A stretch of DNA of 64,000 nucleotides from an uncultured Bacilli bacterium (GTDB taxonomy: Bacteria > Bacillota_I > Bacilli_A > RF39 > UBA660), in contig CAKOXC010000002.1 of assembly GCA_934129945.1 (NCBI GenBank), positions 53,747 to 117,746 on the forward strand, given 5' to 3'. Under the pieces are notes generated by a model. It did not search any database. It had not been told where the DNA came from and saw only the letters and a list, made by a program, of their open reading frames with translations. Numbering within the stretch: position 1 is the stretch's first letter; each line of letters opens with the position of its first letter. Both the position numbers and the translations under genes were made by a program. Shown piece by piece: positions 18,067-64,000 of this stretch.

Positions 18067-20595
18067 TTATAATTTAAAATCATCTAAGAAATCATCCATT
18101 GTAAATTCTTTAACTTCTTCTTTCTTGACTTGAGATTCTTCAATACTCTCTACTGGTTTCTTTTTAATATAAGATTTTTTTTCTGTTTTAATAAATATTT
18201 CTTCAAGATTATATTTAGAAATAGAAGAACCAGTTGAAGCTAAATCCATTATTGAAATATCACTATTTTTAATTTCTTTTATTTCATTATCAAATTCTAA
18301 ACATATAATATCTCTTGAATTAGTAATAAAAGCTTTAATTATATAATAAACAGCCGATTTAACTTTTTTCATCAGTAAATTACCTTTTTTAGCTCTACTT
18401 AACGTAGTAAGTTCTGATATTTTAATTCTTTTAGCTGTTCTATTGTTAGTAAATACGTTCAAATATTCATCATTATCACTAAAACTACTTAAACTTACTA
18501 ATTCATCATCTTTTAAATTAATTCCTTTAACACCAGCAGCTTTAGGGCCAACAACAGGTATTTCTAAAGAATTATATTTTAAGTAATAACCATTTTTCGT
18601 AACAAGAACGACATTAGTATTGTCTTTTTCTACACTTACAAGTTCATCATCGTCTTTTAATTTAATAGCAGTGATTGGCTTAGAATATCTTGAAACAATA
18701 AAGTCTTCTAATTTAGATTTTTTTACTAAACCATTTTTAGTTGCAAGAATAATAATATCATCTTTATTTTCTAATACTAATGAAGAAATTATCTTTTCTT
18801 CTGGAGAAATCATTACAACACTATTAACATGCTTTCCAAGTTCTTTCCATTTAACTTCTGGTATTGCATGAACTGGAATAAATAAATATCTACCTTGGTT
18901 TGTAAATAAAATAATATTATCAAGAGTACTTACTTCATAGAATCCCTTAACAAAATCTCCTGGTTTCATCATTGTTTTTTCACCATTTGATGAATTATAA
19001 CTTTTAAGACTTACTTTTTTAATATATCCTTCGTTTGTTACAATAACAATAACATTTTCTTTAGGAATCATACTCTTCATATCAAGTTTAATTTCAGTAA
19101 TTTCATCCTTAATTTCAGTACGCCTTTCATTACCGTATTCTTTTTTAATAGCTTTAAGTTCTGTCTTCATAACATATTTTAAAGCGTCTTCATTATTAAG
19201 AATTTGAGTCCAAACACTAATATTTTTTTCTAACTTAGCCATTTCTGCTTTGATTTCTTCAATATCAGTATTCGTCAAGCGATATAATTGTAATTCTACA
19301 ATAGCTTTAGCTTGATCAAATGTAAATTCATACTTACTAACCAAGTTATTTATAGCATCACTTTTATTCTTACTAGCTCTAATTGTAGCAATTACTTCAT
19401 CTAAAATACTTATTGCTTTTAATAATCCTTCTAAAATATGAAATCTAAAATTTGCTTCATTTAGATCAAATCTAGTTCTTCTTGTTATTACTTCTTTTTG
19501 ATGAGCTATAAAAGCATCTAAAATATCTAATATTCCAACTAATTTAGGTCTTCTATTTACAATAGCAACCATATTAAAATTATAATTTATCTGTAAATCA
19601 GTGTTTTTATATAAATAATTTAATATAAGTTCAGCATCTGCTTGAGGTTTAAGATCTATAACAAGTCTTGCTAAATTAGCATGATCTGATTCATCAATAA
19701 CATCATTAATTCCTTCAATTTTCTTATCAGCTTTAATATCAAGTATTTTTTTGACCAATTGTTCTTTAACAACTTCATAAGGTATTGAATGAATAATAAT
19801 TTGTTTCTTATTTTTACTTGTTACTATTTCTGCTTTAGCTTTAACAATAACTTTTCCTTTTCCTTTAGTATAAGCTTCTATTAATCCAGTTTTACCTTCA
19901 ACAACTCCACCTGTTGGAAAATCAGGACCTTTTAAGACTTCCATAACTGTTTCAAGACGGCAATTAGGTGAATCTATTCTCTTTATTGTAGCATCTATTA
20001 CTTCACTTAAATTATGAGGCGGTATATTTGTAGCATAACCTGCTGAAATACCTGTAGATCCATTTACTAAAAGATTAGGAAATCCTGCCGGCAAAACAGT
20101 AGGTTCTAATTCAGTATCATCAAAGTTATAAGTCATTTCAACTGTGTCTTTTTTTATGTCTTTAAGCATAACTTCAGCAAACTTCGATAATCTAGCTTCT
20201 GTATAACGCATAGCTGCTGGCCCATCACCATCAATTGATCCATTATTACCATGAATATCTATAAATGTTTCACGCATCTTCCATTTTTGGCTCATACGAA
20301 TTAAAGCGTCATATATAGAAGAATCACCATGTGGGTGAAATTTTCCCATGATATCTCCAACTGCACGAGCACTTTTACGATATGGTTTATCATATGTAAA
20401 ATGAGATGCAAACATAGCATACAAAATTCTTCTTTGAACTGGTTTTAAGCCATCACGAACATCGGGTAATGCTCTTTCTTGAATAATTTCTTTTGAATAT
20501 CTCCCAAAGCAAACTCCCATTATTTCTTCTAAAGAATAATCATATATTTTTTCAACTATAGTTTGTTCTTCTTTTTTCTTTGCCATGTTTATCAC
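18067..20595 (-). CDS. parC: DNA topoisomerase IV subunit A
   Basis: 842 aa. Active-site region RALPDVRDGLKPVQRRILYAM (Q rather than GyrA-type H). No GyrA-box seen. Immediately downstream of parE. Confidence 0.8.
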   Translation of the reverse strand: MINMAKKKEEQTIVEKIYDYSLEEIMGVCFGRYSKEIIQERALPDVRDGLKPVQRRILYAMFASHFTYDKPYRKSARAVGDIMGKFHPHGDSSIYDALIRMSQKWKMRETFIDIHGNNGSIDGDGPAAMRYTEARLSKFAEVMLKDIKKDTVEMTYNFDDTELEPTVLPAGFPNLLVNGSTGISAGYATNIPPHNLSEVIDATIKRIDSPNCRLETVMEVLKGPDFPTGGVVEGKTGLIEAYTKGKGKVIVKAKAEIVTSKNKKQIIIHSIPYEVVKEQLVKKILDIKADKKIEGINDVIDESDHANLARLVIDLKPQADAELILNYLYKNTDLQINYNFNMVAIVNRRPKLVGILDILDAFIAHQKEVITRRTRFDLNEANFRFHILEGLLKAISILDEVIATIRASKNKSDAINNLVSKYEFTFDQAKAIVELQLYRLTNTDIEEIKAEMAKLEKNISVWTQILNNEDALKYVMKTELKAIKKEYGNERRTEIKDEITEIKLDMKSMIPKENVIVIVTNEGYIKKVSLKSYNSSNGEKTMMKPGDFVKGFYEVSTLDNIILFTNQGRYLFIPVHAIPEVKWKELGKHVNSVVMISPEEKIISSLVLENKDDIIILATKNGLVKKSKLEDFIVSRYSKPITAIKLKDDDELVSVEKDNTNVVLVTKNGYYLKYNSLEIPVVGPKAAGVKGINLKDDELVSLSSFSDNDEYLNVFTNNRTAKRIKISELTTLSRAKKGNLLMKKVKSAVYYIIKAFITNSRDIICLEFDNEIKEIKNSDISIMDLASTGSSISKYNLEEIFIKTEKKSYIKKKPVESIEESQVKKEEVKEFTMDDFLDDFKL

Positions 20596-22795: not shown

Positions 22796-24694
22796 TTACT
22801 TTGTAAGAACTAGGCGAAGTCCAATGCCACCATCGGCACCACCAGTGTGATGAATGAAGGAGAACTGACCCGCAAGTACACCATTGCCGTAACGGCCGCC
22901 TCGATGGAACCAAGAGTACGAAGAATTGGCAAAGTAAGAATTGTCAGCATACCAACCATTGTGTGGGCGATTATTACTATCTGCATCTTGATAATAATAA
23001 AATGGTCCCATCTCTCCTGTTGCATCTCCTAAGATTCTCTTACTATATGTTGTCCAATCACTATTTGCATCATATTCATCATAATATTTAGAATTGTATG
23101 ATTTTAATGATGAACTATCAAATCCTGAATCCTTATACGTTTCACTTCTAAGTGATGCCATATACTCCAAAGCTCCACCGCTCATATCATATATTCCTGT
23201 TATATTTCCTGTTGTACTTGCTTTATATCCTGTACTTGTATTATATGGTAAAGTTACACTTGCATCTGTTCCATAGGTTCCGGGGACTTTGGTTTGATCA
23301 GCACTATCTGTTGCTGCATATCCTGTTATGTAATTTGAATTATTATTTATTCTAACTTCAGTATTTATTCCATATTTTGAATGAGATAGATATGCTACTG
23401 CTCCCCATTCTGTATTTTTCATCATATGTGAGTCATTATCTCTTTTATAATTATATGCTGTTTCAAACATTGTTTTTACATTTATATTTCTTAATGATGT
23501 TTGATTTGGTTTTACTGTTATATTTGCTGTACTTCCGGTTGTTTCAAATTTTGCTACCCATAATCCATTTGTATTCATTGAAATAAATGCAGGTGAAGTC
23601 ATATAATCTCCAACCTTACAATTACCACTTGCTCCACTTGTCATTGGTGTTGTACATTCTCCATTATTTGAATCATTTGTATTTGTTGTGCCAAATTTTA
23701 TTTGAATTTCTTTTGCATTACTTGTCGTTGGCTTACTAGATGTATACCCATCAGTTTCACCTAAATTAAATATTTGATATGAATATTTTGGTATCCATAC
23801 AAAGTATGATTCAATATTATCTTCTGGTATTGTATCCCCATTATTATATATTTTAGAACTATCTGCTAAAATAACTGCATTGGCCCATTTCTTATCTTCA
23901 TATTTATACCACTCTATATTAGTATCTGCCTTTGTTACTGTTCCATCATCAGCTATTGCTACTGGTATTAAATTATCACTTAATACTGGATCTGTTCCAT
24001 TAAGTAATGCTTCTTTGTATTCAGCTTTAACGCTAGAATCAGTACTACTTGTTACTATTACTTTACCAGTAAATGATTTACCCATAGTTGATAAATCTTC
24101 AACACTTTCATCCATCCAAACATATAGTTTATATGTCTTTGACTGTCCTTTTGATACTACAGAACTATTATCACTATTCATAGTAGCTTTTGTTAGACTT
24201 CCACTAGTTAATATATATGAATTTAATATATTGTAAGTATTATTATTTTCATCAGTATAAGTATAATTATTATATTCATCATATTTTTTTGTACTTCCTA
24301 TTATCTTAGGACCTACTGTGTTGCCTTTTTCGTCAACCAGTTTGTAATCAAGATAATTATCTAAATCACTACTTCCAGTAGTGTTTAATGTTACATTATA
24401 ATACATATCAATTGAACAATTATTAGTTATTGTAAAAGTATATGGGGTATTTTTCATTGCATCAGTTTCGCTCATCGGATAAGTATTTGTTAAATTAATT
24501 GGATTTTCATCAGTTAATTCAAAAGAAAAACATCCACTTTTTATTTTATTAGTTGATTTTTGAGCATAATTTTTTTGCCAATATGCATAAGATACACCTG
24601 TAAATATTACCATAATAAATATAAATGCTAAAACTCCGATTAATGTTATTGGTAATATATTATCTTTATTAAATTTTAAATTTATTTTTTTCAT
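22796..24694 (-). CDS. Ser/Thr/Asn-rich membrane-anchored surface protein with C-terminal FGE-sulfatase (SUMF1/DUF323)-like domain
   Basis: N-terminal TM (ILPITLIGVLAFIFIMVIF). C-terminal motifs GIYDMSGGALEYMAS, HRGGRYGNGVLAGQF, GIGLRLVL resemble the FGE fold (DMxGNVWEW, RGGSW, GFRC). Start is one of three consecutive ATGs at 24694-24700 after SD AGAAGG. The 3' ~250 nt are strikingly GC-rich. Confidence 0.5.
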   Translation of the reverse strand: MKKINLKFNKDNILPITLIGVLAFIFIMVIFTGVSYAYWQKNYAQKSTNKIKSGCFSFELTDENPINLTNTYPMSETDAMKNTPYTFTITNNCSIDMYYNVTLNTTGSSDLDNYLDYKLVDEKGNTVGPKIIGSTKKYDEYNNYTYTDENNNTYNILNSYILTSGSLTKATMNSDNSSVVSKGQSKTYKLYVWMDESVEDLSTMGKSFTGKVIVTSSTDSSVKAEYKEALLNGTDPVLSDNLIPVAIADDGTVTKADTNIEWYKYEDKKWANAVILADSSKIYNNGDTIPEDNIESYFVWIPKYSYQIFNLGETDGYTSSKPTTSNAKEIQIKFGTTNTNDSNNGECTTPMTSGASGNCKVGDYMTSPAFISMNTNGLWVAKFETTGSTANITVKPNQTSLRNINVKTMFETAYNYKRDNDSHMMKNTEWGAVAYLSHSKYGINTEVRINNNSNYITGYAATDSADQTKVPGTYGTDASVTLPYNTSTGYKASTTGNITGIYDMSGGALEYMASLRSETYKDSGFDSSSLKSYNSKYYDEYDANSDWTTYSKRILGDATGEMGPFYYYQDADSNNRPHNGWYADNSYFANSSYSWFHRGGRYGNGVLAGQFSFIHHTGGADGGIGLRLVLTK

Positions 24695-24799
24695 CATCAT
24701 ACCTTCTACTCTATAAATTATTATACTAAATAAGGAATAGTAATTCAACTGAAAAACTATTTTAAATTACTAGAAATTGTTATATTTTCACCATTAAAT

Positions 24800-37744: not shown

Positions 37745-37821
37745 GTCCTCATAGCTCAGCTGGATAGAGCATACGCCTTCTAAGCGTACGGTCGCAAGTT
37801 CGAATCTTGCTGGGGACACCA
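37745..37821 (+). tRNA. tRNA-Arg (anticodon TCT)
   Basis: Cloverleaf read by hand. Acceptor stem GTCCTCA/TGGGGAC with one G-U pair, anticodon loop CTTCTAA, T-loop GTTCGAATC, encoded CCA. Confidence 0.85.
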
Positions 37822-51368: not shown

Positions 51369-53384
51369 CTAATCTTCAGTATTTACTTCGTATTTATTTT
51401 TTTCATTAAATAAGTGTTCAAAATAATTTGTTTTTATTGCTAAATTACTATATTTAATCATATTATCAACATCAGTATTAATGTTAACTATTTCATCATT
51501 AGTATATCTATCATCATTAAAGTATGACATTCTACCAGTAGATGCATAATAGAACCCAACTGGAGTTTGCCATGATCCATCAGCAAACACTACTCTATTT
51601 TGATAACTTGATGACAATAAGTCAGTTCCCATATAAAGTCTAGGGTCATAATCTAAGTTAAATAAGTTAGCTACTGTAGGAAGTACATTTACATATGAAG
51701 TATATTCACTATATGTCTTTGGAGTCATTTTTGAGTTATAAATTACAAATGGTGTTCTATCTACTTCATTATATTTATTAATACCATCACCAAGAACTTT
51801 TGAAATATCAGAATTAGTTAAACCATAAGGATAATGATCGGCATATAAAACTATAACAGTATCATCAAGAATACCTTTTTCTTCTAATATTTTTAAAATT
51901 TCTCCTAATGAGTCATCTAATACTTTTAATTTTGACATATATCTTTTTACATTAGATGGATATCCAGTATTATCAAATGAATCATAATATATTTTAGAAA
52001 GTTCACTATCAGTATAATATGGTTGATGAGGACTAACAGTTGTAATCCAAGCCATAAATGGTGAATTTTGAGTAAATATCTCACTAGATTTATCCATTAA
52101 TAATACATCACTTGGCCACTCTTTATATTCATTATTATATGAAATTCCTAAATCACTTACACCATAATATTTACTACTTCCCATATTTTTATGAATAGTA
52201 GAACGATAATAATATTTTTCTGTATAATTATGGTATGAAGTTGTTGTATAGCCTTTATTGTTAAATAATCCAAAAATACTTTCTTCATATTTATTATTCA
52301 TATATACATTGGCAGTACATGTTCTATAAATACTATATAAACTTATCATACCTGTCATTTCATTATTACCTGTAGAACATGAATTTCTTGGTGAATAAGC
52401 ATTTTCCCAATACCAACCGTTTTTATATAATTTAGCAAAATTTGGATAGATATTTTCATCTAATAATATATTATTAACTGATTCCATCATAATTACAATT
52501 AAATTTTTACCTTCAAACATTCCAGTATATTCATTTTTATCAGTAACATTACGTGACATAAAATAATTATTTAAAGTTTTATAATCTATATTAGCTTCAT
52601 TATTATTTAAATTTTGCCATGCAGTATCATCAACCGTTCTTGTATAATCTGTAATTTCAGTATTACCATTATTTTTACTTACAAATTTAACTTCATTACT
52701 TGTTTCATTAACTGGAAATAGTGCTGTTTTAATATCAAGGATTCCAAACATTTCTACTCCAAATTGGTTTACAGCAATATTTGGATTACTTGGATTTTTA
52801 AATAAAGTTTTTGTCTTAACAAGCTGAATCTCATTTTGCATAAATCTCAAACTTAATGAGGCATAATAAAAACCACTAAAAAGTACTAAAAATACTAATG
52901 CAATAATTCTTGCAATATTATCTTCTTTTTTTGTATAAATATTAAGCTTTTTATCTTTTAAAATAAATTTTTCTAATATTTTATATATTATCAATAATAC
53001 TAAAGGTATTGTAATTATATAAAAAATACCATTAAAACTTGCTATATAGTCACGAACATATTCCTTAACAGCTCCAAGTTGACTAGAAGTATTAATTGAA
53101 ATATATACTCCTAAATAATTTTCAAATCCGGCTTGAGCTATTGCATAAATTGTTGCAATTATTACTATTAAAAATGTTAAAATATTAGCTATCCATTTTT
53201 TACAAAATGATAATAATATACTTAAAAATAAAGAAATAATAGATATTCCCATAAATATTCTTAAACTAGACCAATCTAATACAGATGTATTTTCTACTGC
53301 TTTAAAAATCATTTCTATTCCAAACAAACTAATTGTTAGAATTAGATAATTTTTTAAGATATTATTTGTTAATATTTTTTTCAT
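51369..53384 (-). CDS. LtaS-family lipoteichoic acid synthase / sulfatase-like membrane protein
   Basis: 671 aa. 5 N-terminal TMs plus extracellular alkaline-phosphatase-like domain (YADHYPYG). Confidence 0.6.
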   Translation of the reverse strand: MKKILTNNILKNYLILTISLFGIEMIFKAVENTSVLDWSSLRIFMGISIISLFLSILLSFCKKWIANILTFLIVIIATIYAIAQAGFENYLGVYISINTSSQLGAVKEYVRDYIASFNGIFYIITIPLVLLIIYKILEKFILKDKKLNIYTKKEDNIARIIALVFLVLFSGFYYASLSLRFMQNEIQLVKTKTLFKNPSNPNIAVNQFGVEMFGILDIKTALFPVNETSNEVKFVSKNNGNTEITDYTRTVDDTAWQNLNNNEANIDYKTLNNYFMSRNVTDKNEYTGMFEGKNLIVIMMESVNNILLDENIYPNFAKLYKNGWYWENAYSPRNSCSTGNNEMTGMISLYSIYRTCTANVYMNNKYEESIFGLFNNKGYTTTSYHNYTEKYYYRSTIHKNMGSSKYYGVSDLGISYNNEYKEWPSDVLLMDKSSEIFTQNSPFMAWITTVSPHQPYYTDSELSKIYYDSFDNTGYPSNVKRYMSKLKVLDDSLGEILKILEEKGILDDTVIVLYADHYPYGLTNSDISKVLGDGINKYNEVDRTPFVIYNSKMTPKTYSEYTSYVNVLPTVANLFNLDYDPRLYMGTDLLSSSYQNRVVFADGSWQTPVGFYYASTGRMSYFNDDRYTNDEIVNINTDVDNMIKYSNLAIKTNYFEHLFNEKNKYEVNTED

Positions 53385-54030
53385 TATTCACTTCGCCACC
53401 TCTTATTATTAAATCACTTACTGGCTTATATGTAAACCTATAATTTTCTAAAGGGCCAAATTTTTGTAAATTCTGTAAATGTTCTTTAGTTGGATAACCT
53501 TTATGTTTTTTAAAACCATACATAGGATATTTTTCATCAAGTTCATACATCATTCTATCCCTCGTTACTTTTGCTATAACACTTGCAGCTGCTATTGATA
53601 AAGATAATGCATCTCCATGAATTATACTAGTTGAAGGCATTTCTAAATTAAGAGGCATTGCATCAATTAAAACATGTTCTGGTTTTATATCTAGTTTAGA
53701 AATTGCTTCATACATGGCAAGTTTACTAGCTTCATAAATGTTTACCTCATCAATAATTTCAGCATCAATTACCCCTACTCCAATAGATATAGCATCTTTT
53801 TTTAATATATCGTAAAATAAATCTCTTTTCTTTTCTGATAGTTTTTTAGAATCAGTAAGTCCTTCTAATTTATAATTTTTAGGAAGTATTACTGCTGCAG
53901 CTACAACTGGTCCAACTAAAGGCCCACGTCCTACTTCATCAACACCTGCTATTAATTCTATGCCATTTTCATATAATTCTTTCTCATATTTCAATAAATC
54001 AATTTCTTCTTTTTCTAACTTCTTTTTCAT
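53362..54030 (-). CDS. rnhB: ribonuclease HII
   Basis: GVDEVGRGPLVGPVVAAAVIL motif. Confidence 0.85.
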   Translation of the reverse strand: MKKKLEKEEIDLLKYEKELYENGIELIAGVDEVGRGPLVGPVVAAAVILPKNYKLEGLTDSKKLSEKKRDLFYDILKKDAISIGVGVIDAEIIDEVNIYEASKLAMYEAISKLDIKPEHVLIDAMPLNLEMPSTSIIHGDALSLSIAAASVIAKVTRDRMMYELDEKYPMYGFKKHKGYPTKEHLQNLQKFGPLENYRFTYKPVSDLIIRGGEVNNEKNINK

Positions 54031-54033
54031 ATT

Positions 54034-54897
54034 TTACTTTCTATCAAATGTTATTCCTTTAATATATTCATTTTTCATATCATTAACTATTCTAGTAGAA
54101 ACTTTATCATAGTCAACTTCATTGTTTTTTATAGCACCAATTTTTTTACCAATAGTTTCATAAGTTTTTTCTATATCACGAACATTATTTATTCCATAAC
54201 GTTCTTCTAAAATTTTAGGATAATAGTCATGTAACATATTTAAAATATGAATTGCAACATCATCCATTGGTAATATTTCTTCTTTTATAGCAGTAGTAGC
54301 TGCTAAATTTAAAGCAACTTTTTCATTATCCATTTTAGGCCATAAAATACCTGGTGTATCTAATAATAAAATATCACTGGACGTTTTAAGCCAAACTAAA
54401 TTTTTAGTTACACCAGGCTTGTTACCTGTAACTGCAACTTTCCTTCCAGCCATTTTATTAATTAATGTTGATTTACCAACATTTGGTATTCCAATTACTA
54501 AAGCTCTTATTTCTTTTTCTTTAAGACCTTTATTTATTCTTTTTTCTTGAAGTTCTTGCATCATTTCATGAGTAACATCTATTATTTTTTTATAGTCATC
54601 ATTATTATTTAAATCAGCTAAAATTACTTTAGCTCCCATATTTTCATAATATGATACCCAATAACTAGTAGCTCTTAAATCGCATAGATCTTTTTTTGTC
54701 ATTATAATAATTCTTGGTTTACCTTGAATCAAATTATAAATATCTTTAATCTTAGAAGAATATGGAATTCTAGCATCAACAAGTTCATATACTATGTCAA
54801 TTAAATTATATTTTTCTTGAATTAATCTTCTAGTTTTAGCCATGTGACCTGGAAACCAATTTATATTTGTTTTATTTTCATTATTCATTATTTTCAC
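54034..54897 (-). CDS. rbgA: ribosome biogenesis GTPase A (YlqF/RbgA)
   Basis: INWFPGHMAK, circularly permuted GTPase motifs; upstream of rnhB as in Bacillus. Confidence 0.85.
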   Translation of the reverse strand: MKIMNNENKTNINWFPGHMAKTRRLIQEKYNLIDIVYELVDARIPYSSKIKDIYNLIQGKPRIIIMTKKDLCDLRATSYWVSYYENMGAKVILADLNNNDDYKKIIDVTHEMMQELQEKRINKGLKEKEIRALVIGIPNVGKSTLINKMAGRKVAVTGNKPGVTKNLVWLKTSSDILLLDTPGILWPKMDNEKVALNLAATTAIKEEILPMDDVAIHILNMLHDYYPKILEERYGINNVRDIEKTYETIGKKIGAIKNNEVDYDKVSTRIVNDMKNEYIKGITFDRK

Positions 54898-54993
54898 TTC
54901 CTTTTATTAATTAATAATTCTAATTGCTTCTTTTCTATCAGAATCTTTTTCTTTACTGCTTAAATCTATATAATTAGTATTAATCTGTCTAGA

Positions 54994-55134
54994 TCACCTA
55001 TCTACAAATGCTTTTGGTATTGTTAAACTTCCGTCTTGATTAATCATACATTTGCTAAAAAGATGCTTTTGCCATCTTGACCATCTATCATATTCATAAG
55101 CAGCAAGCTTTTCAATTATATCATTATTTTTCAT
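54994..55134 (-). CDS. small ORF (46 aa) with SD AGGTG, ending at TGA but open in-frame for 28 further codons to TAATAA
   Basis: Manual translation MKNNDIIEKLAAYEYDRWSRWQKHLFSKCMINQDGSLTIPKAFVDR*SRQINTNYIDLSSKEKDSDRKEAIRIIN. Confidence 0.25.
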   Translation of the reverse strand: MKNNDIIEKLAAYEYDRWSRWQKHLFSKCMINQDGSLTIPKAFVDR

Positions 55135-55298
55135 AAAACACCTATTTAATTAATATTTCTTTCATCATTTTTTCTCTTTATTTTCATTTAAATAATTCTT
55201 TGTAATAATTACATCATATTTATATATTAAACCATCAGGAGAATTTTTCTAATTGGTTAGTCCTATATGCTCTTTTACTAATTTTGCTCTATTATATA

Positions 55299-55778
55299 CT
55301 AATTCAGCAGCAGGATATCCACTCTTTCACTTATTCTTATTGCTTTGATACGTTCTAATAATTTGTCAAAATATTTTGTATCATATTTATTTCCATATAT
55401 AAAACGTTCATCATTTAATGCAAATCCCTTAGTCATATATTCTTTTAGTATTTTTGTAGCCCATATTCTAAATTCTGTTGCTTTTTTCGAATTTACTCTA
55501 TATCCTACTGCAATTATGGCATCTAAACTATAAATAATTGTGTTATAGTTTTTTCCATCATCAGCAGTTAACGAGCATTTCTCGGTAACTGATTTTTTAT
55601 CTAACTCATTATCTTCAAATATATGTTTTAAGTGTAAGCTTATATTATCGGTAGAACATTCAAAAACTTTTGACATTCCTTTTTGTGATAACCATAAAGT
55701 TTCATCTTTATAAATAGCATCTACTATAATATTACCTTCATTATTTTTATATATAATTAATTTATTGTCTTCCATCAA
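55299..55778 (-). pseudogene. RhuM-family (virulence-associated) protein, N-terminal half only
   Basis: 159 aa matching the RhuM N-terminal ~150 aa (ETLWLSQKGMSKVF...LDAIIAVGYRVNSKKATEFRIWATKILKEY). Full-length family about 330 aa; no C-terminal remnant downstream. Confidence 0.55.
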
Positions 55779-56023
55779 TAATCTCCTTTCTATTAATTTT
55801 TTTAAATCAATCTTAATATTTTTATATTTATCAATATAAATACATTTTGCTTTATTTTCTAGTTATAGTTTACTTCTTAAATTCATAAATCCTTTTAATT
55901 ATATCATAAAAAAGATAGATTTTAAATCTACCTAAATACTAATTATTAAAATCTAAATATTTTATATTCATTAATTATCGCTACCACATTATTCTTATAC
56001 TATTCATATGCTATATAGTTTTT

Positions 56024-57088
56024 TTAAAATCTTAAAAATCTTCTTAATCTGGATTTAACATTTTGCTTTTCTTTTGTTTCTATTTCTTTAAAATTTATAT
56101 CATTAGATGTTGTTTCAATAACATTTAATCTTTCGCTCACATTTTCTAATAGAGCATCCAAATCTTTGTGCATTTTAATATCCCAACATATATCTCTAAA
56201 ATCTTTAGAACCTGGTCTAAGATTTAATGTTATACAATGAGATACTTTATCTAATCCTATGGCATAAATGCAAAGTAAAATTTCATAAAATTTATCATTT
56301 TTATGTTCTATCATCTCATCAATTAATTGAGTATATAAATTACTTTCAATAAAATTTTCATCAGTCATAACTGGATAAAGTAAAAAATCTATTTCAGGAT
56401 TTTCTACCAATTTTTTCATATTAACTAAATGACGGTTATCATTAAGAGAAATACTATTTTGAGCAAGATAACCGATTGAATGTTTCGGATAAGAAGTTAA
56501 ACTTTGTAATCTACTAGAGTCGACACTTGCTATTAGTTGCATATCTTGTCTATGATAAGGACTATTAATTGAATCTTCATTCTTTGCAATAGTTGCTAGA
56601 TTATCCCATACAGTCCTAGACAAATCATTATCGCGTAATTCTTTTTTCACATCATGAGATTCTACTAATAATTTTAAATCTTCTTCATGAAAAGGACTAT
56701 CAATAAAAATTGAGTCACCTAAAATCCATAAGCAATAACGTGCTGTTTTCATTTTAGATGCCATTTCTATATCTTTATAAAAATTTTTACTTTTAAAAAA
56801 TTCCTTATTAAATAAATTATCTAAAAGATGATCACAACCACCATTTTCAGTATTTTTTAAAGTAGTTATAGCTTTTATTTTAGAAGGAAAATCTTCAATA
56901 CTTAAAAGTTCTCTATCTAACAAAAATTGTAAAGAAAATCTTATTTCCTTATTATCTATATCTAAATTAATAATACTATTTTTTTCTACTTCATTTAAAG
57001 AATCAATCCATTTTTTCATATCATCAAAATTTTCAAAAAAACTATCTAATTCATATCTTTTTAATTGTTTTATAACTTTATCTTTCAT
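56024..57088 (-). CDS. hypothetical protein (354 aa), accessory region
   Basis: No recognisable domain. Confidence 0.4.
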   Translation of the reverse strand: MKDKVIKQLKRYELDSFFENFDDMKKWIDSLNEVEKNSIINLDIDNKEIRFSLQFLLDRELLSIEDFPSKIKAITTLKNTENGGCDHLLDNLFNKEFFKSKNFYKDIEMASKMKTARYCLWILGDSIFIDSPFHEEDLKLLVESHDVKKELRDNDLSRTVWDNLATIAKNEDSINSPYHRQDMQLIASVDSSRLQSLTSYPKHSIGYLAQNSISLNDNRHLVNMKKLVENPEIDFLLYPVMTDENFIESNLYTQLIDEMIEHKNDKFYEILLCIYAIGLDKVSHCITLNLRPGSKDFRDICWDIKMHKDLDALLENVSERLNVIETTSNDINFKEIETKEKQNVKSRLRRFLRF

Positions 57089-57374
57089 CTATAAACCTCC
57101 TTAAATCATATTTTAATCTATTATTTTAATAATTGCAAATTTTTTTTGAATTTCATATTCACTTACTAAACGATAACTTGAAATAGATTTTTATAAATAT
57201 CCAAAGAAATAAAATTTTGTAATAATTTTAAAATTTTAGTTACTTCTTCAAATACATGTGATTTTAATTTAAAAATTAACATAAATTTAGAATTTCCCCA
57301 AAGTATAGTAATTTTAATTCTAATTGATTTTAAAATTGTAATATGTTAGTATATACTGACAGGAGGTTATTTTA

Positions 57375-57686
57375 ATGAAATATGATGGATACTATTTAGT
57401 GGAAGTATTAATACCTGAAACGTATTCTTTGTCAATGAAATCTGGATGTATTAATTATTGTCTATGTACTAAAGACGGTGATAAATTTCACGATATTATC
57501 ACTAATAATTCTTATTGTAAAGACTCTGGATTTGGAAACCCAGAAGTAATGGATTATATACCATTTTCTGAATTTTATAATAGATTAGGGTTAAAAAGGA
57601 TAATTGTTAAAAAACGTGCTGAAAGCAACGAAGCATATAAACTAGTAAAAGAGCATAAAAAAGTATTAAAGAAAGCAAATAAATGA
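57375..57686 (+). CDS. hypothetical Cys-rich protein (103 aa)
   Basis: SD GGAGG. Followed by intrinsic terminator. Confidence 0.4.
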   Translation: MKYDGYYLVEVLIPETYSLSMKSGCINYCLCTKDGDKFHDIITNNSYCKDSGFGNPEVMDYIPFSEFYNRLGLKRIIVKKRAESNEAYKLVKEHKKVLKKANK

Positions 57687-57709
57687 AATTATTATTAAAT
57701 AAAAGTATA

Positions 57710-57737
57710 AGAGCCTCTTACATCAGAGGCTTTTTAT
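57710..57737 (+). terminator. intrinsic terminator AGAGCCTCT-tacatc-AGAGGCT + T5
   Basis: Read directly. Confidence 0.55.
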
Positions 57738-57909
57738 GTTAAAAAGAATATATTTTATAATTTATCATCTTTATTTGCATTTATAAAACATTATCATTTA
57801 TTAAAATTTTTAATTATATTATATATTAAAAATAAGATAAATTAAAATCTATCTAGCTACTAAAAATTAAAATTTAATTTTTTTAGTTTTTTAAATTTAA
57901 AAACAAAAT

Positions 57910-58442
57910 TTATTTTGAAACATTAAATATCTTAGTTATTTCATTAATTAATTTTGGATCATTTGTCATATTAATGTATCTTCTATTCATAACTTTATCG
58001 TTAATCTCATACTTATCATCAGTACATAATATTTCATAGCATACACCATTATCTTCATAATATTTATTCGTTTCATGAAAACCATTTTTTAAATAGAAAT
58101 TTTTACGTCTAACACTTATATTATCAACAGGTGAATCAATTGATAAAAATAATACTTTATATTTTTCTTTCAAATCCATTAATATTCTAGAACAATAATT
58201 TTGACTTCTTAAATCAGGCACAACTGCTAAATACATAAGGTAATATGCATTACTACAATTAACAAGATAACACATTCCTATTAATTTATCATTATCAATT
58301 ATACCGTATAAAACTGAATTATTTTCTTTAGAACACTCTTCTAATATCCAAAAAGGAAATCTTTCTTCTTTAGGAAACGAATTTAAATATAATTTTTTTA
58401 TTTCATTTGCATATTCAATGTTATTTATATATTTAAAGACAT
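57910..58442 (-). pseudogene. GNAT acetyltransferase with frameshift immediately after the start codon
   Basis: ATG 58442 with perfect SD GGAGGAATA gives MSLNI*. The long frame (NVFKYINNIEYANEIKKLYLNSFPKEERFP...MCYLVN...) is offset by one nt and has no start until 58275. Confidence 0.45.
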
Positions 58443-58450
58443 TATTCCTC

Positions 58451-59305
58451 CTATTTTATTCCTTCAAGTTTCTTTTGCGCTTTTATTTCTAATTTTTTCT
58501 TTTCTTTTTCAAGCTCTTTTAAACTTTTTTCTGGTGTTGGCATTTCTTCAGGCATTATTCCACCAATATCTGCGATTGCTTTTCTAACTTTTTTCCCAAC
58601 CTCATAATGTACATCTTTTGCTTCTTTTTCTCCTTGTACATTATCTTTTAAAAGTTTTTGTTTTGTTTGATTTATTCTAAATAAATTAGCAACTAATTCA
58701 TCTTCATTCATATTATCCAAAATATCTTCTCTATAACGTAATTTTTTTCTTTTAAAAATATCGTCAGCAGTTTCTCCATTATATAATCCTTTATATCCTG
58801 CATTATGAAATTCAGCCATATTTTTAACGCCAGCAGATGAAGCGACCTTTTGTAATGTATAATTACCTTGTCTTGTTAACTTTCTTTGATAAAATCTTTT
58901 TTCATCATCTGATAATGAATCATATTCTTGCTCTGTTATTTCTTGTTTTCTTGTTTGTATAGCAAAATATGTTTGTCCTAAAGCAACAACTTCTTTATTT
59001 GGATCAGCATTTTGTACTATTAAATAACATATATATCTTGAAAGTTTATAATCTTTAATAATTTCTTCTTTGCCTTTACCAGTTTTTATTGGCTTGTTGA
59101 CCTCAACAACCCAATCTTCTTCGCTTGAAACGCTGTTATTTGCTGCTAAAACTGCTTTATCTATTACTTTTTGAAAATTTCTCCAGTCTTTATATTCCAA
59201 TACTTTTTGTAATTCACGCGCATACCAATATTCATTTTCATATTCATCTATATGTTTAATATTCTCAAAAATATTGTTAGTATATCTATCTCCAAGTTTC
59301 TTCAT
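58451..59305 (-). CDS. DinD-like protein, copy 2
   Basis: 284 aa paralog of 10725..11543. Confidence 0.5.
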   Translation of the reverse strand: MKKLGDRYTNNIFENIKHIDEYENEYWYARELQKVLEYKDWRNFQKVIDKAVLAANNSVSSEEDWVVEVNKPIKTGKGKEEIIKDYKLSRYICYLIVQNADPNKEVVALGQTYFAIQTRKQEITEQEYDSLSDDEKRFYQRKLTRQGNYTLQKVASSAGVKNMAEFHNAGYKGLYNGETADDIFKRKKLRYREDILDNMNEDELVANLFRINQTKQKLLKDNVQGEKEAKDVHYEVGKKVRKAIADIGGIMPEEMPTPEKSLKELEKEKKKLEIKAQKKLEGIK

Positions 59306-59383
59306 TACTATCTCCTTTTTTATTGATTTATATAAAAGTTTTCCATAAGTCGATTTTTACATCTATAATCCAATTTTTTTGTA

Positions 59384-59983
59384 TTAATTAATTTTGTTTA
59401 ATTTATTGTAACTTCCTGTTTTTGATAAAACTTTATACCCTTCTTTTTGTCTTAATTTTTTTCTTTCATCTACATCAAGTACTAATACTTTCTCTGCTAT
59501 ATCAATATGTAATACTCCGTCTAAATGATCAAGTTCATGAGAAAGTACGGTTGATTCAAATCCTTCAAAAACATCTTCATGTTTTTCACCATTTAAATCA
59601 ATATAATCAACTAAAATCTTATATGGTCTTTTTACTAGTCCTGTATTATTAAGACAGCTAGCACAAGCTTCCCAGTATTCAGTTAATCCTTCACGTAATT
59701 TTACAACAGGATTTATTAAAACCCTTGCCTCATTATATTTTTCGTCGTCTTCAGTAGCAGTATCTTCTTGCATTTTATTTATTATATCAAGATTAGTATT
59801 CTTTAAATAAATTAACCTCTTAGGAATTCCAAGTTGAACAGCTGCCATAGCCATAACTCTATTTTCCTTACAGTATTTCTCTAATATCTTTATATCATTT
59901 AGTAAATCTTCATCATTAAGAACTACTTCCTTTGATATTTGTCTCAAAAATTCTTCATCATCATAAATTGTTATAGCCTTCAT
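59384..59983 (-). CDS. peptide deformylase paralog (atypical motif 2)
   Basis: Motif 1 MAAVQLGIP, motif 3 HELDHLDG present. Motif 2 reads EACAS instead of EGCLS. Confidence 0.6.
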   Translation of the reverse strand: MKAITIYDDEEFLRQISKEVVLNDEDLLNDIKILEKYCKENRVMAMAAVQLGIPKRLIYLKNTNLDIINKMQEDTATEDDEKYNEARVLINPVVKLREGLTEYWEACASCLNNTGLVKRPYKILVDYIDLNGEKHEDVFEGFESTVLSHELDHLDGVLHIDIAEKVLVLDVDERKKLRQKEGYKVLSKTGSYNKLNKIN

Positions 59984-60429
59984 TTTATAATCTCCATTTC
60001 TTCAAATAATTTTTCTATTCTATTATAATATATAACTTAAAAACCATAAATATCAAATTAAACACTAAATCAAATTTTGTCCGAATATCACAGGCATCTG
60101 TAACTATTTTATAACTAGTTTTTTTGTTCAACTTTTTTATTTGATGGTTGAAGTTGATTAAATAAATTTGAAAAACATAAGTTAACCAGAATGTATTTTT
60201 TTCTTGAAATCAATATAATCGGACTGTAAAATATAATACCATTACAGGAAAAATTATAGATAAGAAAGAATAAAATTATAACCACGTTTTTTACAACAGT
60301 AAAAATGAAACGTTGTAAAAATATAATAATATTCATAATTATTATCACTATATAAATATAATGTTGGTAGTGAACAACTAATTCCATTCTAAGAAACTGT
60401 ATAAGCTAATTTAACTTCATTTTCTATAT

Positions 60430-60610
60430 TATTTAAATATGATTCATTATTTTCAATTTCCAACCTGTTATATTTACTAATTTCATGTAATACCTTTTCT
60501 ACATTATATAATCATTTATATCTTGCATTATGAAATTCAGCCATATTTTTAATATCAACAACTAAACCAACTTTTTGAAGTGTATAATTACCCTGCTTGT
60601 TCTAATTTAC
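60430..60610 (-). pseudogene. remnant of a third DinD-like gene (internally deleted)
   Basis: 60511-60605 is about 80% identical to 58790-58880 of copy 2 (AEFHNAGYKG region). 60440-60510 weakly matches the N-terminal region. Confidence 0.45.
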
Positions 60611-60676
60611 TAAAATTTTAATCATGATAAAATATTAATATCCTACATGTTTTATTAATATTTTAAAAATTTATGA

Positions 60677-62362
60677 TTATTTTTGAACTTTTCCATTATT
60701 TATATGGATTATTTCATCAAAATTTTTAATTAATTCCATATCATGACTAATCACAATAATGGTTTTATTTGTTGCAAGTTCATCTAGTAGTTCTTTAATA
60801 TATTCTGTATTTTCTTTATCTAAAGCACTTGTAGGTTCATCAAATAAAATAATTTTTGATTTTTTTACGATTGCTCTTGCTATTGCTATCCTTTGTTTTT
60901 GACCACCTGATAAATTTGTTGATTTATCATTTATTATTGTATTATAACCTTCAGGCATCTTTAATACAAATTCGTCTAATTTAGCTTTTTGACAGGCATC
61001 TTCAAAATCCTCTTTGGTAGCATTCTTGTTTGATAATAGAATATTATCTTTTATACTTATATTAAAAATAAAGGGATCTTGATATACAACAGATATATTA
61101 TTAATTATAGATTCTTTGTCTAATTCCTTCAAATCAACATTATCGATTTTTATGCTTCCTTTATAATCATCATAATAATGTAACATCAACTTCATAATTG
61201 TTGTTTTTCCAGATCCACTTTTTCCTATCAATGCTGTCTTTTTGTTTGGCTTTATTTTAAATGAAATATTTTTTATTACAAATTTAGAATTGTTGTATTC
61301 AAAATTTACATTGTCAAATTCTATATTTCCTTTGACTTTATCTAATTTTTTTGTCCCAAATCTCTCTTCTTTTATTTCATTATTTGATAATATTTTCATA
61401 TTTTTTTCAATATTTTTGATAAAACTTGGAACATCAATACTATTTTCTATAATATGATTAAAATATATATTTATAATATTACTTATATATGTACTTAATA
61501 AAATTACTTTAGTTGTATCAAAATCAAATTTTGAAATCAATATTATTAAAATTAATATCAAAAATAAATCTGATAACTTCCAAATGTCCCATCTTATAAC
61601 ATTTGTAGTTACCCAATAATTTGCTTTTTTATCTTTTAAACTACAAAGTTCATCATTAATATCTTTATATTTTTTTACATATGTCTTTTCAGCGTCTAAA
61701 ACTTTTAATTCTTTAAATCCTAATATTGTTTGGTTTAACAAGGTTGATGCTTCATATGTTTTTTCATATTCTAAATTAGTAACTTTTTTTGTTTTTGAAA
61801 TGTAGACTCTTGTTAATATTGTTAACAGTAATAAAACTATTGCTACTAATAACCAAATTATAAAATCGATAAAAAATATAATTATAAACAAAATAATTAA
61901 ATATAAAACTTTTGTCACAGCCCATAAATATTTTGTTAATATGCTAATCATTTGTTCATTTGCATTTTCGACTGTCGTAAATAACTCTCCAACATTTATT
62001 TTTTCAAAGTCTGAATGTGACATTTTTATAATTTTTTTATAAAGATTTATTCTTATTTTTTGAGCAAATTTTATACTAACCTTTTTAGATATTTTATGAT
62101 GATAATAATGTAAAATATTAAGGCCAATAAATGACACTATCATATAGATGATTATATATTTAATTGCTGTATCAAAATTTTTTTCTATTACATTTGATAA
62201 TGAATATGATAAAGTTGTATTTGTTACAATTTCAGATAAAATAAATAGCACCATTAAAATTAAAGATATTATATACCATTTTTTATATTCCTTTGTATAA
62301 TCAAGTACACTTTTTATAGCCGTTATAAAACTCATATTATTATTTTTAGTACTTTTATTCAT
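60677..62362 (-). CDS. ABC exporter, fused permease-ATPase (MsbA/MdlB-like)
   Basis: 561 aa, 5-6 TMs. Walker A GKSGSGKTT, signature LSGGQKQRIAIARA, Walker B ILFDEPTSALD. Confidence 0.8.
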   Translation of the reverse strand: MNKSTKNNNMSFITAIKSVLDYTKEYKKWYIISLILMVLFILSEIVTNTTLSYSLSNVIEKNFDTAIKYIIIYMIVSFIGLNILHYYHHKISKKVSIKFAQKIRINLYKKIIKMSHSDFEKINVGELFTTVENANEQMISILTKYLWAVTKVLYLIILFIIIFFIDFIIWLLVAIVLLLLTILTRVYISKTKKVTNLEYEKTYEASTLLNQTILGFKELKVLDAEKTYVKKYKDINDELCSLKDKKANYWVTTNVIRWDIWKLSDLFLILILIILISKFDFDTTKVILLSTYISNIINIYFNHIIENSIDVPSFIKNIEKNMKILSNNEIKEERFGTKKLDKVKGNIEFDNVNFEYNNSKFVIKNISFKIKPNKKTALIGKSGSGKTTIMKLMLHYYDDYKGSIKIDNVDLKELDKESIINNISVVYQDPFIFNISIKDNILLSNKNATKEDFEDACQKAKLDEFVLKMPEGYNTIINDKSTNLSGGQKQRIAIARAIVKKSKIILFDEPTSALDKENTEYIKELLDELATNKTIIVISHDMELIKNFDEIIHINNGKVQK

Positions 62363-62459
62363 AAAACTAAATTCCTTTCCTAATTTTATATCAGCATATC
62401 ATAAAATTGATTAGTTTTACAAGACCTCCTAAACATAAATATTTTATTAAAATAATTCA

Positions 62460-63035
62460 TTATTTTAATAATAGTAAATTTTTCTCTTGAATTTCATATT
62501 CACTGATTAAATAATGATATTTATTTGCTTGAGCAAGTAAATCACTCTTTTTTAATTCAAATAATAATTTTATGTCTTCTTTTGAAAATAATTTTAATAT
62601 TTTTTGAAGCTCATTTTGTTCTAATTTACCAAAATTTAAATCATGATAAACTATTAATTTAGATACTTTATTTTTTAAATCATCAGGAATATTAAACTTA
62701 TTACAGAACTTTAGAAATATTTCATTTGATTTATTCCAATGATTATAAAAATGACCAACTTTATTTTCGTCTTCTTTATAAACATAAGGTTTACCTATAT
62801 CATGAAATAAAGCTGCAAGTCTTAATGTTAAATTATTAGAAACACCATCAACTACATGAAGAATATGTTCATAAACATCATAAGTGTGCCATTCATTATT
62901 TTGATTAAATCCCTTAGATTTTTCTAATTCTGGAATTAATAGAAAAATTTCTTTTTCATGATCTTTTATTAATTTACTAGGCTTATCACTCAATAAAATA
63001 TTAAATAAATTTTTAACATTGTCCATTCTTTTCAA
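62460..63035 (-). CDS. HD-domain phosphohydrolase
   Basis: H...HD motif (ALFHDIGKP). Confidence 0.65.
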   Translation of the reverse strand: MKRMDNVKNLFNILLSDKPSKLIKDHEKEIFLLIPELEKSKGFNQNNEWHTYDVYEHILHVVDGVSNNLTLRLAALFHDIGKPYVYKEDENKVGHFYNHWNKSNEIFLKFCNKFNIPDDLKNKVSKLIVYHDLNFGKLEQNELQKILKLFSKEDIKLLFELKKSDLLAQANKYHYLISEYEIQEKNLLLLK

Positions 63036-63079
63036 CTCACTTTTATAAACTATATTAATAATATCATATCTATTTATTT

Positions 63080-64000
63080 TTAGATATTAAATTCATAATT
63101 CAAGTCTATATTTTTAGTTTTTTCATTTATTATTAAACTGTTTGTTGTAAGTAGTAAACTTGCAATAGAAATAGCACTATTTAAAGAAGATATTAATACT
63201 TTTGTAGAATCTAAAACAGTAGTATCATCAATATTTTCAAACTTATCAGTGACAAGATTATATACTTTTTTATAATTGCTTTTTACTATTTCATTTTTTA
63301 TTTCATTATAATCAAGCATAGCATTATCAATTATTTTTTTAAATGGTTTTTCTAATATATTTTTCAAAATAAATTTTTCATTTAATTTTGCTGCTACTTC
63401 TAAGTATGAAATACCTCCACCTATAGATACTCCTTCATCAAGAGAAAAAATAGCATTAATTGCATCATCAAAATGCATTTTAGTTTCTCGTATTTCTGTA
63501 TTTGTTTTACCACCAACTTCTATTAAAGCAAGGCCATTTTTTAACATTGATTTTCTTCTTTGATAAAATTCAATATCAAAATCATTAGTTAAATCATTAA
63601 TGGCTAAATTAATTTTATTTACATAATCTTTAATATTAATATCAAAATATATAGTAGTTTTTTCTTTATTAATTTTAATTTCTTTTAAAATTCCAAAATA
63701 ATAATCTTCTTTAAATATTTTAGCGCCACTTATTTTCACTATATCCTGAGATATTAAAAACTTTCTAATTCCATATTCAGGATTTTTTAACAAATAAATA
63801 TTTAAATCACTATCATAGTTTATGGCTAAAACATTATTAATTAAATCTTCATCATAATCATCTGCTAAAATCACTAAATCTTTTTTTCTATCAAGGCATT
63901 CATTAATAATATCACTTACAGTTTCTAAATCTTCTATTTTATTATTAGTTACTAAAATGTAAGGATTTTTTAACTCTATCAAATTACTATCTTTAAAAAA
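63080..64000 (-). CDS. highly divergent GroEL/Cpn60-family paralog, C-terminal ~300 aa; gene runs off window end
   Basis: Alignable with GroEL residues about 200-525: NPYILVTNNKIEDL vs SPFILLADKKISNI; GLALIEVGGKTNTEIRETKMHFDDAINAIFSLDEGVSIGGG vs [49 protein letters not shown] vs ILDPTKV. No GGM tail. Much more divergent than a housekeeping groEL. Confidence 0.6.
   Translation of the reverse strand, partial: FFKDSNLIELKNPYILVTNNKIEDLETVSDIINECLDRKKDLVILADDYDEDLINNVLAINYDSDLNIYLLKNPEYGIRKFLISQDIVKISGAKIFKEDYYFGILKEIKINKEKTTIYFDINIKDYVNKINLAINDLTNDFDIEFYQRRKSMLKNGLALIEVGGKTNTEIRETKMHFDDAINAIFSLDEGVSIGGGISYLEVAAKLNEKFILKNILEKPFKKIIDNAMLDYNEIKNEIVKSNYKKVYNLVTDKFENIDDTTVLDSTKVLISSLNSAISIASLLLTTNSLIINEKTKNIDLNYEFNI

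Follow-up and report, generated by a model that had tools for sequence, protein, structure and literature searches.

What does a GroEL-like protein do in a bacterium when its gene stands apart from groES and its sequence has departed from that of the housekeeping chaperonin? Few bacterial proteins are as conserved or as thoroughly studied as GroEL, and specialised derivatives that lack GroES are rare and have mostly unknown clients. The question is raised by a gene at the edge of a 64,000-nucleotide stretch of DNA (the window; positions 53,747 to 117,746 of contig CAKOXC010000002.1, assembly GCA_934129945.1) from an uncultured bacterium of the Bacilli lineage RF39. The C-terminal part of this GroEL-like gene occupies window positions 63080-64000 on the minus strand as 306 codons plus a stop codon at 63080-63082, and the open frame continues past the window end. 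The comparisons described here show, at the level of sequence, a GroEL-superfamily ATPase without the hallmarks of the GroEL/GroES folding machine that is genetically bound to a pair of genes encoding a radical S-adenosylmethionine (radical-SAM) protein and a DUF4130 protein. We consider it probable that the protein is a specialised, GroES-independent derivative of the group I chaperonins, dedicated to the radical-SAM/DUF4130 module and encoded by its third, translationally coupled gene.

As judged by profile matches, the homology of the window-edge sequence to GroEL is far beyond chance. The fragment corresponds to residues ~205-525 of E. coli GroEL, which cover the apical, intermediate and C-terminal equatorial domains, and represents the 3' 60% of the gene. 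Pfam Cpn60_TCP1 (PF00118) matched the fragment with 49.4 bits (E = 3.8e-13; gathering cut-off 34.3), the NCBIfam GroEL models matched over model positions ~208-526 with E = 1e-47 and 162 bits, and solved GroEL chains matched over residues ~209-523 with E-values of 1e-33 to 1e-31. Full-length relatives recovered in a protein search are 505-514 residues long and all carry PF00118. A 505-residue protein (P0176) from the 90% cluster of the best match has the same residue as the window translation at 306 of 306 positions. The metagenome contigs that carry P0176 (L084-L089) are 99.96-100% identical in nucleotide sequence to window positions 53080-64000 and continue past 64000. The full-length gene lies at L084 10001-11518, where L084 position x is converted to a window position as 74598 - x, and its first 199 codons are outside the window. 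This N-terminal part holds the GP, D52 and GDGTTT ATP motif. The GroEL-like gene is full-length and intact, and it is not a fragment. The protein ends in ...NEKTKNIDLNYEFNI, a C-terminus without GGM repeats, and the GGM tail is likewise missing from every family member displayed. Identity to canonical GroELs is ~28-31%, whereas canonical GroELs of different phyla in the same sample average 60%. The original prediction, made from the window letters, had described a GroEL/Cpn60-family gene far more divergent than housekeeping GroEL, without a GGM tail and with its N-terminal part beyond the window. The Pfam, NCBIfam and solved-structure matches, the identity values, the C-terminus and the contigs with P0176 agree with each of these points, and the gene-fragment possibility that it had raised gave way, once the upstream sequence was checked, to a complete 505-residue gene.

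The sequence upstream of the window end places the GroEL-like gene third in a row of overlapping genes. The first gene (L084 8045-9256; 403 aa) encodes a radical-SAM protein that matched TIGR03916 with 588.5 bits (cut-off 343.5), and the second (L084 9249-10004; 251 aa) encodes a DUF4130 protein that matched TIGR03915 with 198.4 bits (cut-off 112.25). The radical-SAM and DUF4130 genes overlap by 8 nt, and the DUF4130 and GroEL-like genes overlap by 4 nt at an ATGA junction. A scan of GTDB species genomes with the family alignment returned 31 divergent relatives, together with ~49 canonical GroELs that were used as an internal control. The divergent relatives belong to gut metagenome-assembled genomes that carry the label uncultured Bacilli or Tenericutes; the hosts are human (Hadza), rabbit, mouse and chicken. 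DUF4130 is directly upstream on the same strand in 30 of the 32 GTDB and Logan loci, and the remaining two contigs begin inside the chaperonin gene. The radical-SAM gene was found at each of these loci whose contig extends far enough, and the remaining flanks vary between loci. The trio is also present at L083 (P0003, 68% identity), L084-L088 and L092-L095 (including P0073, P0084 and P0090), and at both family loci listed from an independent metagenome scan (L096-L097), neither of which has groESL. Related loci with upstream DNA have the trio in every case (42/42), and both junctions overlap, by 1-50 nt, in all 23 complete trios. Mean pairwise identities over 23 genomes are 69% for the radical-SAM protein, 47% for the DUF4130 protein and 41% for the GroEL-like protein; in 98-100% of genome pairs the GroEL-like protein diverges more than both partners. 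The distances of the trio members are correlated (rho 0.80-0.84), which fits co-inheritance.

The TIGR03916/TIGR03915 pair occurs in roughly 20% of bacterial genomes, according to the TIGR03916 description cited in PMC4951493; it is a predicted enzyme for the repair or modification of DNA or nucleic acids (PMC4951493, PMC3765255). A 2026 preprint presents a model in which the DUF4130 and radical-SAM proteins pair tightly as a heterodimer, with a narrow channel that would suit single-stranded nucleic acid. No account of the three-gene form was found in the literature on DUF4130, TIGR03916/TIGR03915, RF39 GroEL, or GroEL combined with radical SAM and SOS, of which coverage was incomplete. The PADLOC-DB defence-system models gave no match to the three trio proteins at E <= 0.01, and a defence-system role was rejected on the absence of these matches.

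Canonical groEL genes almost always travel with groES, and the two gene classes were compared on this point. Searches of six-frame open reading frames using phmmer with E. coli and B. subtilis GroES found GroES at none of 32 trio loci and nowhere in the window; the same scan found it at 46 of 49 canonical loci. Among the loci listed from a second (metagenome) scan, tblastn located GroES at 72 of 78 canonical loci, and the other 6 have no upstream DNA on the contig. Over both scans, upstream DNA is missing at most of the canonical loci where GroES was not seen. GroES is upstream of the GroEL-like gene at 0 of 42 loci with upstream DNA. Direct searches for GroES were made on L001-L030, L046, L060, the window and L096-L097, and the other loci were judged by gene calls. 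The original prediction had placed any groES partner beyond the window, and this was not borne out: the 10 kb past the window end contain no Cpn10. No canonical groES or groEL was found in the window (64 kb), in the 10 kb that extend it or in the related loci (~470 kb). The controlling inverted repeat of chaperone expression (CIRCE), searched with <=3 mismatches, was absent from the window and L084 and was not found upstream of any trio; it precedes groES in 42 of the 49 canonical loci. The sole CIRCE in the family loci is at L060 19205-19231, 7.7 kb from the chaperonin gene, where it stands before a divergent Hsp20-type gene (18773-19165, minus strand). An HrcA/CIRCE regulon thus exists in the lineage, and the GroEL-like gene is not part of it.

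P0176 is below the cut-offs of all GroEL models. The score with the GroEL equivalog model TIGR02348 is 253.5 bits against 582.1, or 43% of the cut-off, and the scores with the other two models (NF000592 and NF009487 tested) are 276.2 against 397 and 277.4 against 352. Housekeeping proteins of the window were scored against curated equivalog or subfamily cut-offs as a control for gene-specific divergence. Scores were 987 bits for ParC (cut-off 813), 911 for ParE (900), 724 for TopA (456), 550 for UvrC (285), 666 for RelA/SpoT (499) and 217 for ComEC (190). The divergence is specific to the GroEL-like gene: these housekeeping proteins pass their cut-offs and the GroEL-like protein fails. The GC content of the window genome is ~24%, and P0077, a GroES-linked GroEL from another gut organism with 27% GC, was used as the control for composition-driven divergence. 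P0077 is encoded by a groES-groEL pair (L090 5745-7575), has no GGM tail, is ~45% identical to Lactobacillales GroELs and scored 599 bits with TIGR02348 (cut-off 582). The basal trio-linked member P0084 scored 448 bits with this model. The order of the scores, P0077 > P0084 > P0176, appears to show a graded divergence from a canonical ancestor. In the representative search P0077 ranked first among the non-family matches; it shares 52-54% identity with its relatives, which are GroELs of the Clostridia type. Its candidacy as the canonical GroEL of the window organism itself was ruled out by a tetranucleotide correlation of r = 0.58, compared with 0.79-0.85 for chunks of the same genome. A second unusually divergent housekeeping-type gene near the chaperonin gene encodes a peptide deformylase homologue (window 59384-59983, minus strand) with 76 bits against a cut-off of 125; this protein has 199 residues and an insertion relative to models of 161-167 positions.

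Residue conservation was compared between 49 family sequences and canonical controls using E. coli GroEL numbering. G32, P33, D52, G53, D87-G-T-T-T, T385, E388, D398, G414, G416 and D495 are kept in essentially all 49 sequences. The hinge glycines G192 and G410 are also retained, and G415 varies in the family and is G in the window protein. By this comparison, the nucleotide-binding and hydrolysis core is retained and complete. The original prediction had stated that several residues near the ATP site were replaced, and this stood in part. Within the window portion A480 is replaced by L, A481 by V and A383 by G; D398, G414-G416, N479, I493 (as V) and D495 are retained. The picture is different in the apical domain and at the subunit interfaces. 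Groove positions that are invariant in canonical GroELs are lost (Y199 to L/I, L234 to S/A/E, V264 to S/A, N265 to L/Y/I and R268 to E/D/N), as are R197 and E386, which form the inter-subunit allosteric salt bridge, and R36 and G374. Conservation is also lost at the inter-ring contact residues (A109, R452, E461, S463 and V464), of which A109, R452 and V464 are invariant in the canonical controls, and the E434 region is deleted. Judging from these replacements, the protein appears to have lost several of the features by which canonical GroEL is bound to GroES, to a generalist mode of substrate binding and to the allostery of a double ring. Within the family, identity is lowest in the apical domain (29%) and highest in the equatorial domain (45%), compared with 62% and 59% in canonical GroELs. 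Family-specific motifs are conserved as well: NPEYG replaces the canonical APGFGD, and an LLC motif is located near the N-terminus.

An AlphaFold2 (AF2) model of P0001, which is 92% identical to the window protein, has the full three-domain fold with a pLDDT of 88.9 and a pTM of 0.79. The elements from which GroEL builds its ring interface, the N- and C-terminal strands and the stem loop, are present in the model. Foldseek aligned the model to GroES-bound, open-state GroEL chains with TM scores of 0.82-0.87 (best 0.87, 5opx_A) and to apo GroEL with 0.62; the predicted conformational state was not taken as a functional indicator.

The GroEL-like gene is under purifying selection. The dN/dS ratio is 0.27 against a 92%-identical relative, and roughly 60 or more clusters formed at 50% identity have an intact frame. 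A neighbor-joining tree placed the trio-linked sequences in a monophyletic group in 89 of 100 bootstraps, and the nearest neighbours of the clade, P0084 and P0090, are trio-linked too. The mean internal distance is 1.22 for the trio clade versus 0.55 for canonical GroELs of many phyla. This sequence pattern fits a history in which a groEL copy was recruited once into the operon and then diverged rapidly. A phage origin was rejected, as phage GroELs are no closer than cellular ones (best 28-30% identity).

The promoter region of the trio contains a conserved palindrome. The sequence [C/T][G/A]AAC-AWWT-GTTT[G/A] is located 26-56 nt upstream of the radical-SAM start, and its strict RAAC-N4-GTTY form is present at 16 of 26 loci, enriched 117-fold relative to the remainder of these loci (Fisher p 1e-28). 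The window species has the palindrome as CGAACAAATGTATT at L084 8008-8021 (window 66577-66590, past the window end), within the spacer of a TTGTAA-18-TATAAT promoter. The form in relatives is CAAACAAATGTTTG. A position weight matrix was run over 472 kb, and the strong matches were all at the radical-SAM promoter but two. One of the two exceptions (L007) is probably also at the radical-SAM promoter, with the gene start called too far upstream. Over the window the matrix gave matches at chance level (3 found versus 1.2 expected), and the window has no lexA or recA for a cross-check. The LexA (Cheo) box of Gram-positive bacteria is CGAAC-N4-GTTCG. The palindrome has the same architecture and is probably a LexA operator whose outer positions have shifted from G/C to A/T in a lineage rich in AT. 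LexA regulates the TIGR03916/TIGR03915 operons of Verrucomicrobia (PMC4951493), and those of other phyla have been shown or predicted to be LexA-regulated (PMC4951493, PMC3765255). SOS control of the trio operon is likely, as we infer by analogy with these systems.

The proposed mechanism starts with transcription of the operon from a single promoter with a LexA-type (Cheo-box-like) operator. With such an operator at its promoter, the operon would be DNA-damage inducible. Translational coupling would then yield the GroEL-like protein in fixed proportion to its clients, and the protein would use ATP, without a co-chaperonin, to serve as the dedicated chaperone or assembly factor of an Fe-S radical-SAM/DUF4130 complex for nucleic-acid repair or modification. 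The GroEL-like protein may have originated in a single duplication of canonical groEL followed by progressive divergence. That the GroEL-derived ATPase is a fixed subunit or dedicated chaperone of a radical-SAM repair or modification system that is itself DNA-damage inducible is a possibility that we advance tentatively.

Several observations weigh against this explanation. Membership in an operon is linkage and not mechanism, and we infer the binding of the protein to the radical-SAM/DUF4130 pair. The whole basis of the LexA assignment is the resemblance to the Cheo box together with literature on other phyla. The one recA promoter found (L016) has an imperfect copy of the palindrome, the right half-site is degenerate (GTAT) in the window species, and 10 of the 26 loci have no strict palindrome. 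Hydrophobic residues persist in the groove at Y203, F204, L237 (as I), L259 (as I/V) and V263 (as L), so some GroES-like or substrate binding may be retained. The neighbor-joining tree is prone to long-branch and composition artefacts, which makes the deeper placement unreliable, and a duplication of canonical groEL as the origin is unproven, as is the paralog status that the original prediction had assigned.

A protein with an intact ATPase core could instead be the sole housekeeping GroEL of its host, a fast-evolving orthologue in a small AT-rich genome that stands behind the radical-SAM/DUF4130 genes by chance while groES is elsewhere or lost. We regard this as improbable. The lack of a canonical groES/groEL in the window, its extension and the related loci is what such a history would leave, and the ~24% GC genome also favors it, as the peptide deformylase of the window is below its cut-off too. 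Some Mollicutes, relatives of the Bacilli, have lost or reshaped GroEL, which counts on the same side. However, the housekeeping enzymes of the same window pass their cut-offs whereas the GroEL-like protein reaches 43%, and the GroES-linked P0077 passes in a comparably AT-rich organism. The GroEL-like protein has evolved faster than both operon partners, the opposite of a housekeeping GroEL, and it has substitutions at GroES-docking, groove and allosteric positions where canonical GroELs are invariant. No trio is preceded by CIRCE even though the lineage uses CIRCE (L060), and the overlap-coupled trio is kept while every flanking gene changes. Loss of groESL would also be unusual in a Firmicute with cotJ-type spore-coat genes (L093). 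Operon conservation, regulation, gene-specific divergence and residue losses thus weaken the case for a sole housekeeping GroEL.

Two further explanations do without a folding-chaperone role. It may be an integral, ATP-driven subunit of the radical-SAM system, forming a ring or scaffold in which the nucleic-acid or nucleoprotein substrate is positioned, enclosed or remodelled, or by which the oxygen-sensitive radical chemistry is gated; we think this unlikely, although strict translational coupling implies a fixed stoichiometry with both enzymes, the ATPase core is retained, and the NPEYG and LLC motifs suggest an apical domain that has been remodelled and not merely decayed. The channel of the preprint heterodimer model, suited to single-stranded nucleic acid, is a further argument for such a subunit. 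Against it, the protein is colinear with GroEL throughout, with no nucleic-acid-binding motif or extra domain seen, and 41% conservation suits a permissive helper more than a precise machine part. The radical-SAM/DUF4130 pair also works without such a partner in about 20% of bacterial genomes (PMC4951493). At the other extreme, the gene may be what is left of a duplicated groEL, decaying and carried along in the operon while it does little or nothing. Relaxed constraint relative to canonical GroEL (dN/dS 0.27; 41% mean clade identity) and the many lost canonical invariants point in this direction, but a relic would hardly have kept a full-length intact frame in roughly 60 or more clusters and at all loci examined, invariant ATP-site residues across the clade, a confident and well-folded AF2 model, and overlapping start and stop codons maintained over deep divergence. 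This last explanation is very improbable.

A dedicated, GroES-independent chaperonin would have partial parallels in known systems. The likeness of P0176 to canonical GroEL (TIGR02348) extends to the superfamily, the three-domain fold and the ATP-binding and hydrolysis residues (GP, D52, D87GTTT, D398, the GGG region and D495), and its length is similar (505 aa versus about 545 aa). It differs in the absence of an adjacent groES, of CIRCE and of the GGM tail, and in the location of its gene in a radical-SAM/DUF4130 operon. Chlamydial GroEL2 and GroEL3 are divergent extra GroEL copies without a GroES of their own and with altered canonical residues, and as a parallel for a specialised GroEL paralogue they come closest, although they belong to another phylum and another gene context. 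P0176 scored 60.8 and 80.0 bits with the chlamydial models NF038370 and NF038369 (cut-offs 600), which places it outside that subfamily. The closest analogy for the possible working mode of the GroEL-like protein is found in phage GroEL-like chaperonins (e.g. that of Pseudomonas phage EL, PDB 6tmt), which work without a co-chaperonin on a narrow client set. The 6tmt structure matches residues 144-203 only (E = 4e-7), and unlike phage chaperonins the trio is flanked by chromosomal housekeeping genes. Elsewhere the TIGR03916/TIGR03915 pair is described as a unit of two genes in which DUF4130 is often fused to a UDG domain (PMC4951493); in the trio, DUF4130 has about 250 residues without a UDG domain and the GroEL-like gene is appended. 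The LexA-box-like site is shared between the trio and the TIGR03916/TIGR03915 operons of other phyla.

The gene context names the likely clients, the radical-SAM enzyme and its DUF4130 partner, and a likely condition, DNA damage, and this makes a client-specific chaperonin directly testable. The GroEL-like protein adds a third component to the TIGR03916/TIGR03915 system. If it is indeed a fixed subunit or dedicated chaperone of a damage-inducible system, it would represent the first case of a chaperonin built into a DNA-damage operon, and it would provide an experimental handle on an uncharacterised system present in about a fifth of bacterial genomes. The lineage-specific helper may aid the production of soluble, Fe-S-loaded enzymes. 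The family should not be annotated as housekeeping GroEL or used as a cpn60 marker because it is below the NCBI GroEL cut-offs.

The genes around the trio were also inspected. An HD/HDIG-domain gene (window 62460-63026, minus strand; 188 aa) is located 53 nt downstream of the chaperonin gene and matched HDIG with 28.7 bits (cut-off 27.6). No terminator-like site was found in L084 7700-12400, and the HD/HDIG gene may be co-transcribed in the window species because no such site precedes it. Its position behind the chaperonin gene is limited to close relatives (L082, L084-L089), and it does not belong to the conserved trio. Farther upstream of the trio on L084 are genes for an ADP-ribosylglycohydrolase, a signal peptidase, a MatE-family protein, ProRS and ExoVII. 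Cell-wall genes are present in the host lineage, with PBP2B and LtaS in the window and sortase and PBP5 in L001. The trio-bearing assembly GCA_964525365.1 encodes CotJA/CotJB and a Mn-catalase (CotJC-like) at L093 10451-11504. The trio is therefore also found in a likely spore-forming Firmicute, beyond the reduced 'Tenericutes-like' genomes.

A direct repeat of ~105 nt with 84-86% identity between copies is located at window 60496-60601 and 58771-58877. One copy is inside a dinD-like gene (DNA damage-inducible protein D / Bro-N; 58451-59305), and the other, in the spacer upstream of an ABC-transporter gene, is probably the remnant of a second dinD-like copy. A 650-aa open reading frame (window 22796-24748, minus strand) has no NCBIfam match at E <= 1e-20; it adjoins parE/parC in the most GC-rich part of the window (0.31 versus about 0.24). 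The only tRNA gene in the 64 kb is tRNA-Arg(TCT) at window 37745-37821 on the plus strand.

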